64,000 bases of DNA, taken from contig CM052816.1 in NCBI GenBank assembly GCA_028534125.1, forward strand, positions 44,952,001 through 45,016,000, given 5' to 3'. This document shows, piece by piece, positions 59,448-61,889 of this stretch. The position numbers were made by a program, and so were the translations under genes. Position 1 is the first letter of the stretch, and the number at the start of each line of letters is the position of its first letter. The DNA comes from Lama glama. Its lineage: Eukaryota. The notes under the pieces were generated by a model. The model did not search any database. It was not told the origin of the DNA and was given only the letters and a program-made list of their open reading frames with translations.

Positions 59448-59858
59448 CTGTCCACTAGAGATCTATGGTAAGAAGAAAAGGAAGTTGTGCTACTGAAGCA
59501 CATGGTTGTTTTGAGAATTGAGTGAAATATTAGAGTGCCTGGAGCATGGCAAAAACTCCATAAAACTTAGTTCCCTTTTCCAGTAGTTCTAGATAACAAC
59601 TGCCCCTGATGGTGACAGGTCACCCAGAATGCCCCTTGGGGTTCCTATTACCAGACAAAAAGTTTCCTCTGAGGGGGGAAAATCTCTAACTCTTGTAGTG
59701 CTTCATGCCCTGCTCCTGCAGATGGTGGCGCTAACCCCTCTGGAAGAAACCCTACAGCTTGGTCTCTATTATAATCAATTCTAATCATAAATTACAAGGT
59801 ATCAAAGGAAATGCTTGAGACTATTAAAAGAAGACATGCCATCTACTATACATTTGGA

Positions 59859-60630
59859 TAGGCATCTGTAACATTTGTTTCAAAATCACATAGTTTTTTT
59901 TCAATTACAGCTCTAGTGAATTTATGTGCCTCATTATGAAGTAATTTCATAGGAGTTGAGGGATAGAAAGTAGTCATTAACTCTTTCTTCAGAGGAAAAC
60001 CACCATAACCTACAAAGAAAGAATGAAAGATGTAAATAAGAATTTCATATTTAATGCACAGCCCAGTATTTTATTTTAAAAGATATATTCCTATTCACCT
60101 ACTAATCAGTCTCCTTGAATTTGACTTTTTTTTTTAAATCAACCTATTCTTGACTGTCTGAGTTTAAATAAATCATGACATGATCCTGAGAACTTGGCAA
60201 GAACAGCAATGATTTTACATCTGGCATCACACACCAGCTGCGTGTTTGAAGGCATGAAAAGCTTTTCTATTTCTTTACCTTGCTTCATTAGTGAATATGT
60301 GGTGATGCATGCATTACCACGTGTGTGCAGTCTCTGCTCCCCATATGGAAAGTCATCTAGTAATGTCACAAAACCCATGCATCATTTGCTATGATGTTGA
60401 AATTTCAAAAATAATAAGATGATAGTCTTCAGAAATATTTTTGTCTACAAATGGACATATGTTTCTTACTGATAGAGCTATATGCTTAATATATATTGGT
60501 ACAACCTGTTGCAAAAGTCTAATGGAGAAATAACTTCAGCTGTCACAGTTGAACATATGTACAGTATGGTACCCATCTTCAAGTCATCATACAGCAAAAA
60601 ACAATAATTTCCTTGCCAAATCTATGTCCA
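59859..60630 (-). pseudogene. Decayed PIF/Harbinger (HARBI1-like) DDE transposase, two exons with an 89-nt intron
   Basis: Collinear motifs on the minus strand across frameshifts: HRF (60618-60626); LDF.ATG..YQ (~60496-60523); FP..GA.DCTHV (60318-60350); RNRKAFH (60254-60274); NTQLVCDA...LAKFSGSCHD (60172-60246); GD*LVG|intron 60098-60010 (gtgaat...tttctttgtag)|YGGFPLKKELMT...P..P....HNEAHKFTRAVIE (60007-59900); LK..RCL (59859-59885). Confidence 0.85.
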
Positions 60631-60792: not shown

Positions 60793-61319
60793 CTTATTAG
60801 CTATATGCTGTGTAACAAATTACCCCCAAATCATAATGGCTTAGAAGAATAACAACATCTTTATCTCAAGATTCCTGTGTGTCAGGAAACCAGAAGTGGT
60901 CTGGTTGGGCAGTGACAGCTCAGGATCTCTCACGAGGTTGCAGATGATATACCAGAGCTGCAGTCATCTTAAGATTGGACTGTGGCTGGAGGAACTGCTT
61001 CCAAGATGGCTCACTCATGTGACTGGCAAGTTGATGCTGACTCTTTTGGCAAGAGGTATCATCCCTTTAATGTGAAACTCTAGGAAGCTCCTTGAATGTC
61101 CTCATGACATGAGAGGTGGATTCCCCAATGATTGATCCAAGAGAGCAAGGCAGAAGAGGCACTGTCTTTGATGACCTACCCTGGGAAGTCACATGCCATC
61201 ACTTCTGCCATATTCTTATGGTCACATAAACCCATCCTGGCACAGATGGAAGGGGACTACACCATGGCTTCAATATTGGACGTGATATTTAAGGGCCATT
61301 TTGAAGGCTAGTTACCACA
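60793..61319 (-). mobile_element. Solo MaLR LTR (MLT1F/H-like), antisense
   Basis: gctgtgtaacaaattacccccaaa...cttccaagatggctcactcatgtgactggcaagttg...gaagtcacatgccatcacttctgccatattct...ttaccaca. 5-bp TSD ctctt at 60788-60792 and 61320-61324. Confidence 0.88.
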
Positions 61320-61889
61320 CTCTTATAGAAGCTTTATTTTCAAATATATAAGCTTCCATTGTACACACATTTTTATTTAGTTTAAATCTGATTTTGTACA
61401 TGTTCACTTTTCTGTCTTGGCTGAGCATTAAAATAGCAGCATAAAAGTAAAAATAGAGGTTCTCAACCATAATAATTTAATCAATCCAAAAGTTACAAGC
61501 ATATCCACATTTAACTGAAGAAAAAAAGGGTATCTGTTCTAACAGCAAAACTATTTGCAATCCACTGAAAGCACTTACCTAATAATTAAAACAAAAATCA
61601 CTTTGAGTCATTGATTAAAATTATTGATAAGGAAACTAATTATTTGCAGAGATTTTTGCTATTTCATCTTATTAAATATTCTAAGGTAATACCAATCATT
61701 TATCTCAAATCAAAGTATTTTTTAATTAAAAAAAAAGGTTCTGCCTATGACTGATCTTCTGAAACCTTTTTATTAAAGACACATTGAGGGAAGAGAATCA
61801 TCTTTTTGGGTTTTTAATCAATAAAACAGAAATATTAGTGCAGAACTTATCACTAAGCTATTTGCAAAATCTCTAACTTGGTCCCTAAC

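Follow-up and report, generated by a model that had tools for sequence, protein, structure and literature searches.

The 64-kb window analysed here is the whole stretch C1:44,952,001-45,016,000 of the 2.35-Gb assembly of Lama glama, and positions below are counted from its first letter. It carries a decayed PIF/Harbinger (DDE_Tnp_4) transposase gene on the minus strand at 60344-59853, with a weak trace reaching up to about 60600. The features are as follows (carets mark splice junctions):

60830 to 61340, no strand assigned: unrelated high-copy interspersed repeat, found by own-genome DNA search
60345 to 60630, minus strand: possible weak remnant of the N-terminal (helix-turn-helix) half, in several frames, with one colinear tblastn match
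60099 to 60344, minus strand: exon-1 core remnant, SRDCTHV to TGA-LVG, from three-frame reading, HMM (41.9 bits) and alignments
60010 to 60098, minus strand: intron relic, 89 nt, GT..AG, donor G^GTGAAT, acceptor ttctttctttgtag^GT
59853 to 60009, minus strand: exon-2 remnant, (G)YGGFPLKKELMT..NEAHKFTRAVIE, ILKQM, YRCLSK, from tblastn and alignments

Structure of the remnant

Three-frame reading of the minus strand gave the exon-1 core motifs in the order SRDCTHV, RNRKAFHA, NTQLVCDA, AKFSGSCHD and TGA-LVG, with the first catalytic Asp kept within SRDCTHV (GAC, 60332-60330). The run from NTQLVCDA through AKFSGSCHD to TGA-LVG makes up the last 50 codons of the core and lies in a single frame, broken by two TGA stops (60141-60139 and 60108-60106), the latter replacing Trp before LVG. 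Counted from the sequences, it is equal in length to the stretch NCLMVCD..WLLG of HARBI1; local aligners put small gaps into it. After the 89-nt segment follow YGGFPL ... LMT, then NEAHKFTRAVIE, which retains the catalytic Glu (GAA, 59902-59900), and, beyond two frameshifts, ILKQM and YRCLSK. The position of the second Asp is occupied by Tyr (TAT, 60007-60005), one base from Asp. The residues thus run in the order D-(Tyr)-E, with 34 residues between the second position and the Glu compared with 35 in the family consensus, which is consistent with a decayed D-D-E triad. A frameshift-aware alignment to a sturgeon protein (P0036; 62/129 identical) placed three in-frame stops and four frameshifts over about 130 codons.

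A first-pass annotation of this DNA, made from the letters, had reported Harbinger motifs on the minus strand in the expected order. The three-frame reading shows all the motifs listed there in that order, including the catalytic positions, and the change of the second Asp to Tyr and the spacing of 34 residues were both borne out by reading and by comparison with the consensus. Its N-terminal motifs (RF and F.ATG..Q, 60630-60345) fared less well, being absent from the strict frameshift-aware alignment to the family consensus. The trace in that region consists of one pairwise tblastn match, which puts residues 54-82 of the relative P0077 on 60600-60514 (E 0.038), and an alignment of P0048 that starts at about 60485, so that the assignment of 60345-60630 to the N-terminal half of the transposase is only suggestive. 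The C-terminal 75 or so residues of the transposase were not recognizable at the locus.

Homology to the family was examined in several ways. The Pfam model DDE_Tnp_4 (PF13359), a check that had been proposed at the outset, did find the fossil, matching one of five pieces, an 80-aa ORF, at 17.9 bits and reaching 23.6 bits (genome-wide E 0.048) when stops were read through, but both values lie below the curated Pfam cut-off of 24.8 bits. A sub-threshold score is to be expected because the fossil is broken and split over frames and an intron. For a closer comparison, 150 representatives related to HARBI1 exon 1 were sampled from 8265 proteins at E<=0.001, and a family HMM and consensus were built from the 78 full-length relatives among them. 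Against the six-frame, stop-masked window the HMM gave only two matches, both inside the fossil (35.3 and 6.1 bits), and on local frames it scored 41.9 and 12.6 bits. In tblastn against all 64 kb, the HARBI1 protein of the same genome had the fossil as its two top matches, colinear (E 0.001 and 0.19), with 42% identity over 43 aa in the exon-2 remnant at E 0.001; with composition correction it had no match at E<=1. The best single relative, P0077, gave a linked E of 1.8e-13 and was 44% identical to the exon-2 remnant over 41 aa (tblastn).

In the frameshift-aware protein alignment, also proposed in the first-pass annotation, genomic DNA scored 139 against the family consensus and the score rose to 240 once the intron was taken out, compared with a mean of 38.1 (sd 5.3, maximum 58) for 60 dinucleotide shuffles, which rules out chance resemblance. 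Alignment with cheap long jumps over-fitted, introducing spurious jumps, and a stiffer penalty was used for the strict alignment, in which 59/131 residues across 60344-59853 were identical to the consensus, with four frameshifts. The remnant has significant colinear homology, beyond chance, to bona fide members of PIF/Harbinger. The HMM, tblastn, shuffle and intron-removal results together uphold the initial identification of a fossil, intron-containing PIF/Harbinger transposase in a placental genome.

The flanks provided little of the remainder of an element. No terminal inverted repeats or target-site duplication were found at the window copy, and none of the 81 ORFs (>=38 aa, both strands) between 55.5 and 64 kb matched a Myb/SANT-like partner at E<=1; the same ORFs yielded a single DDE_Tnp_4 match. 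A Myb-like ORF may be decayed or may have been cut off by later insertions, and the element ends would be unrecognizable by pairwise search because the copies have each accumulated about 0.3 substitutions per site (half of the copy-to-copy K2P distance). The 60830-61340 repeat abuts the 5' side of the fossil, ending within about 150 bp of its weakest upstream trace; the 5' end of the element may have been severed or pushed aside by this repeat. Its own-genome search returned 381 first-look candidates, 40 of which were scored, giving 42 listed matches on many contigs (window included). It may be an LTR of the MaLR/MLT1 type. Its scored matches, at 68-90% identity, have diverged less than the Harbinger copies have among themselves, which implies that the Harbinger family is the older of the two.

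Sister copies and the shared intron

Besides the window copy, at least 8-13 further Harbinger fossils, just as broken, are scattered over the genome, the counts being lower bounds from the best first-look candidates, which alone were scored. The exon-1 piece as query recovered three other broken loci (C25, E 2.3e-7, 46% over 50 aa; C1:36.38 Mb; C4:34.41 Mb), and the exon-2 piece as protein query recovered no other copy in the genome. With the sturgeon protein P0036, the two HARBI1 exons and at least eight fossil loci were found at genome-wide E<0.05, the window copy among them (E 3.8e-5); a turtle protein (P0155) added at least four further fossil loci, and at least 13 fetched loci besides the window matched the family consensus at E<0.01. 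The question of copy number, raised along with the original identification, is therefore answered by many dispersed loci, and every copy examined was full of stops. When the 801-bp region and the 3' flank served as DNA queries, the window alone was returned, a result of little weight from a method that needs near-identical words. The sister fossils, which belong to this or to related Harbinger families, were as follows, with introns where described:

C25:22365243: L011/L017; intron of about 70 nt, donor GTAAGA, acceptor CTACAG (L011)
C1:36380861: L012/L020; intron of about 84 nt, exon 2 beginning DSRLFLV.., resembling DSSFFLR of HARBI1 (L012)
C4:34410814: L013/L018
C5:66283221: L016
C1:16640153: L021
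C37:16495208: L022
C5:46195881: L023
C14:51594426: L024; intron WIIG^GTTAGT ... TTTTTAG^GTGACAGT
Other sister fossils: L025, L037, L038, L039, L046
C692278: L026; intron acceptor TTTTCCTAG^GTGACCAT

The C-terminal part is longest in L012, which still has the ..ILHNI.. motif. Near-identical pairs of fossils were seen on small or unplaced contigs, namely L026 (C692278) with L027 (C139206), L028 with L029 (C927915), and L031 with L032 (C1027909); these pairs probably reflect assembly redundancy or recent segmental duplication and are not ancient insertions of their own.

Similarity among the copies at the DNA level was limited to the transposase core. The window copy matched L011 at 64% over 227 bp (E 3.8e-14) and L012 at 65% over 149 bp; further comparison gave 48% amino acid identity (30/63) and about 59% nucleotide identity to L011, and about 55% nucleotide identity to L012. 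Over the whole shared stretch of about 170 nt, K2P distances were 0.56-0.68 within the group of window, L011 and L012. The distance was 0.57 between L013 and L024, and 0.9-1.3 from these two to the first group, which makes at least two subfamilies or bursts.

The intron relic is AT-rich and splits the Gly codon of LLG^D in phase 1, with the splice context TTAGTAG^GTGAAT ... tttctttgtag^GTTATGG. Deleting its 89 nt raised the alignment score by 60-68 with 4/4 comparators, and 0/40 random 89-nt deletions reached 240 against the consensus. The HARBI1 gene of Lama glama has one coding intron (CTTG^GTAAGT ... CACAG^GTGACAGT), also of phase 1 and in the Gly of WLLG^DSS, so that the two introns interrupt the identical codon in the identical phase. 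They differ in length, 89 nt in the fossil against about 4.5 kb in HARBI1. A short intron, or its acceptor, is visible in five fossils (window copy, L011, L012, L024 and, by the acceptor alone, L026). Although tblastn reads through the acceptor of the window copy as 'FFVG', we take this to be a coincidence of the pyrimidine tract, since the sister copies share the intron structure. The fossils are dispersed on different contigs and have retained the intron; they therefore spread as DNA, in the manner of a cut-and-paste element, and not as retrocopies of mRNA.

A literature search, judged by titles and abstracts, found no treatment of an intron shared with Harbinger3_DR, and the available portions of Frith 2022 (PMC9004415), which described Harbinger fossils in human, do not mention the intron. 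A short intron in the fossil family at the exact site of the HARBI1 intron is mildly new, and so are the conserved, catalytically dead relatives in sauropsids and frogs described below.

Kinship with HARBI1, fish proteins and a sauropsid gene

In a maximum-likelihood tree (68 rows by 299 columns, the fossil rows 21-40% filled and on long branches), the window copy grouped as (window,(L011,L012)) with support of 81/82, next to the coelacanth protein and a clade of bird and turtle proteins, and L013 joined the bird/turtle clade weakly (79/49). Support for the fossil group is moderate (81/82), with short rows and long branches. HARBI1 formed its own clade (100/100) elsewhere in the tree, its sister being a teleost clade (97/77). 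Identities to the window copy were 53/123 for sturgeon, 49/123 for coelacanth, 48/122 for P0077, 43/122 for turtle and 43/123 (35%) for HARBI1. The motif AKF/Y-x-GSCHD is common to the fossils and the transposase-type relatives, and its counterpart in HARBI1 is TNWPGSLQD.

The window copy thus has its kin among coelacanth and sturgeon elements and not with HARBI1. Among intact proteins, the nearest relatives found were sturgeon XP_058878905.1 (P0036) and coelacanth P0154, 'putative nuclease HARBI1', both of them intact ORFs in fish genomes, whereas the window copy is broken. With HARBI1, which jawed vertebrates have as a domesticated Harbinger transposase, the fossil has in common the protein family, the motif order, and the codon and phase of the single coding intron. 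HARBI1 is, however, intact, single-copy and in a clade of its own, while the fossil is broken, multi-copy, 35% identical to it and carries the GSCHD motif. Lama glama has an intact HARBI1 on contig C36, which we presume to be nearly identical to the HARBI1 of placentals generally.

The bird and turtle proteins are of interest in their own right. About 370 aa long and recorded as 'putative nuclease HARBI1', they are not HARBI1 (P0155, P0162, P0164, P0171, P0179, P0206). They are well conserved (284/323 identical between turtle and emu), and form a clade with support of 99/97 that adjoins the mammalian fossils and the coelacanth protein. In 6/6 rows Gly stands in place of the first catalytic Asp and Arg or Lys in place of the Glu, and the second Asp is kept. 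A search with P0155 found no intact counterpart in the Lama glama genome. From its sequence, this gene has the appearance of a further domesticated transposase of Harbinger origin in sauropsids, one that is catalytically dead, and it may represent an undescribed second domestication. One of the bird records is named after the copper chaperone CCS, which hints at a neighboring gene.

Frogs of the genera Spea, Pelobates, Mixophyes and Pseudophryne have a HARBI1-like protein as well (P0156, P0166, P0189, P0197), filed as 'transcription termination factor 4, mitochondrial isoform X1', a name that hints at a fixed place beside MTERF4. In the Spea protein the first Asp is replaced by Gly and the second by Glu. 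The frog protein lies in a different clade of the tree and is possibly another domestication.

Two further observations concern superoxide dismutase sequences in the Lama glama genome. A multi-exon SOD1-like gene is present on C4, and at C9:8245534-8245935 a match to Sod_Cu (133.9 bits) that is full-length, in a single piece and has one TGA looks like a processed SOD1 pseudogene.

Origin and age of the fossil

The remnant is very probably a transposase gene copy that an ancient cut-and-paste DNA transposon of the PIF/Harbinger type left in a mammal ancestor in the Mesozoic or earlier, now dead and decaying neutrally. In this superfamily, a transposase acts with a Myb-like partner protein to mobilize the elements, and insertion produces a 3-bp target duplication. 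The living element would have encoded a DDE transposase with an RNase-H fold, from an mRNA spliced of one intron of about 70-90 nt in the Gly codon before the second catalytic Asp. The transposase and its Myb-like partner would have moved the element, which, as the superfamily generally does, presumably inserted with a 3-bp target duplication; one copy would have been deposited in the ancestor of mammals and inherited ever since. The window sequence gives no sign of a present function, having stops, frameshifts and a lost second Asp, and having no recognizable C-terminus, partner gene or ends.

At about 0.3 substitutions per site, the divergence of each copy corresponds roughly to 150-300 My at assumed rates of 1-2e-9 per site per year, as estimated from own-genome copies only. 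The first-pass annotation had argued that some 770 bp of readable coding sequence exceeds what neutral decay would leave. This argument is weak, as K2P distances of 0.56-0.68 amount to heavy decay, and decayed copies are still readable because the catalytic core is so conserved.

The divergence estimate bears on the timing of the insertions. It is conceivable, though we consider it unlikely, that the family entered or amplified in the synapsid or early-mammal line after the split from sauropsids, a late invasion that the first-pass annotation had named as its other option. The window copy, L011 and L012 do form a group of their own (81/82) with K2P distances of 0.56-0.68, and about 0.3 substitutions per site in each copy would translate into roughly 150-300 My under the assumed rates. 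The more distant pair L013/L024, however, indicates more than one subfamily or burst, and the 20 human PIF/Harbinger fossils in the available text of Frith 2022 (PMC9004415) were dated as pre-amniote or older.

A still less probable proposal, but one compatible with a transposon origin, is that part of the copy was exapted as a conserved non-coding element and stayed readable for that reason. The abstract of Frith 2022 (PMC9004415) states that many fossils were exapted, and section 10 of that paper that ancient repeats are concentrated in well-conserved regions; the window is also AT-rich. The copy-to-copy divergence, on the other hand, is that of old neutral repeats.

The first-pass annotation had favored a lost domesticated paralogue of HARBI1, that is, a unitary pseudogene of a second domesticated Harbinger transposase. 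On this view the locus could be an orthologue of the dead bird/turtle gene. This conserved sauropsid relative does exist (turtle versus emu, 284/323), it has the AKFPGSC motif in common with the fossils and adjoins them in the tree, and a topology forcing the window copy exclusively with the sauropsid clade, at a cost of 17.3 lnL, was not rejected (p-AU 0.098). This origin is nevertheless very improbable, and it falls to the copy-number check that the annotation itself had named. A domesticated gene would be a single orthologous locus, intact or with few disablements and selectively constrained in relatives, whereas the window copy has three stops and four frameshifts and is accompanied by at least a dozen equally broken, dispersed copies. 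Its closest relations are two of these, L011 and L012, and neither HARBI1 nor the sauropsid gene. The turtle protein is less similar to the window copy than is that of sturgeon (43/122 against 53/123), and the window copy retains the first Asp and the Glu, both lost in the sauropsid gene. Nor does the neighborhood favor orthology: CCS-like Sod_Cu exons lie on C36, not on C1, no fossil was found on C36, and the hint of a neighbor in birds comes from a record name only.

Descent from HARBI1 itself by a DNA-level duplication can practically be dismissed, in spite of the single coding intron at the identical codon and phase and the 50 codons from NTQLVCDA to LVG, as from NCLMVCD to WLLG, since HARBI1 is a poorer match than many Harbinger-type proteins (43/123; no composition-corrected tblastn match at E<=1), the window copy falls outside the 100/100 HARBI1 clade (joining it to HARBI1 costs 18.3 lnL, p-AU 0.042, a marginal rejection), and the intron is 89 nt against about 4.5 kb, other fossils also having a short one.

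The transposon reading, on which the locus is a dead element copy, makes it a very old but unremarkable fossil, such as has been described in human before. The RepeatMasker/Dfam entry AmnHarb1, which we take to be of class DNA/PIF-Harbinger in mammals, would presumably be the library family for such fossils; a full-text literature search for 'AmnHarb1' found none. In the parts of Frith 2022 (PMC9004415) that were available, two pre-tetrapod and 18 other pre-amniote protein fossils of PIF/Harbinger were reported in human, dated by cross-genome alignments, and 1/18 of the pre-amniote fossils had previously been found by RepeatMasker. The same parts of the paper assign the repeat UCON84 to PIF/Harbinger and give coelacanth Harbinger-3_LCh as the best-matching protein of one human fossil. 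Going by that text, the human fossils resemble the present one in being short, frameshifted and stop-ridden, in their small number, in their Harbinger homology, and in having a coelacanth Harbinger among the best matches; they differ in that the earlier study covered human and five other vertebrates, and the window copy is from Lama glama. An attempt to tie the window to the two human loci named there through neighboring genes gave no support: the metaxin-family gene found on C1, at 52.64 Mb, is 7.6 Mb away, there was no activin-receptor match on C1, and the comparison leans on presumed human coordinates.

Elsewhere, in the passages available, Harbinger transposons have until recently been called absent from mammalian genomes (PMC9392472, PMC9179366), and a Repbase review found no Harbinger repeats in human (PMC5753468). 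Other papers combine 'PIF-Harbinger' with RepeatMasker annotation of hg38. The window copy and its sisters confirm, in another placental genome, that Harbinger elements were once active in our ancestors.

A broader proposal, which we put forward tentatively and hold to be somewhat short of an even chance, is that a single Harbinger lineage of vertebrates unites the fossils of mammals, the proteins of coelacanth and sturgeon and the dead bird/turtle gene, and that its transposase gene had the phase-1 LLG^D intron of HARBI1. If so, the intron would be older than the domestication of HARBI1, and the transposase would have been tamed at least twice in vertebrates, as HARBI1 and a further time in sauropsids; frogs may have a third, separate domestication, beside MTERF4. 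Only dead copies of the transposon would then be left in mammals. The shared intron site links HARBI1, in its gene structure, with the transposons from which it descends.
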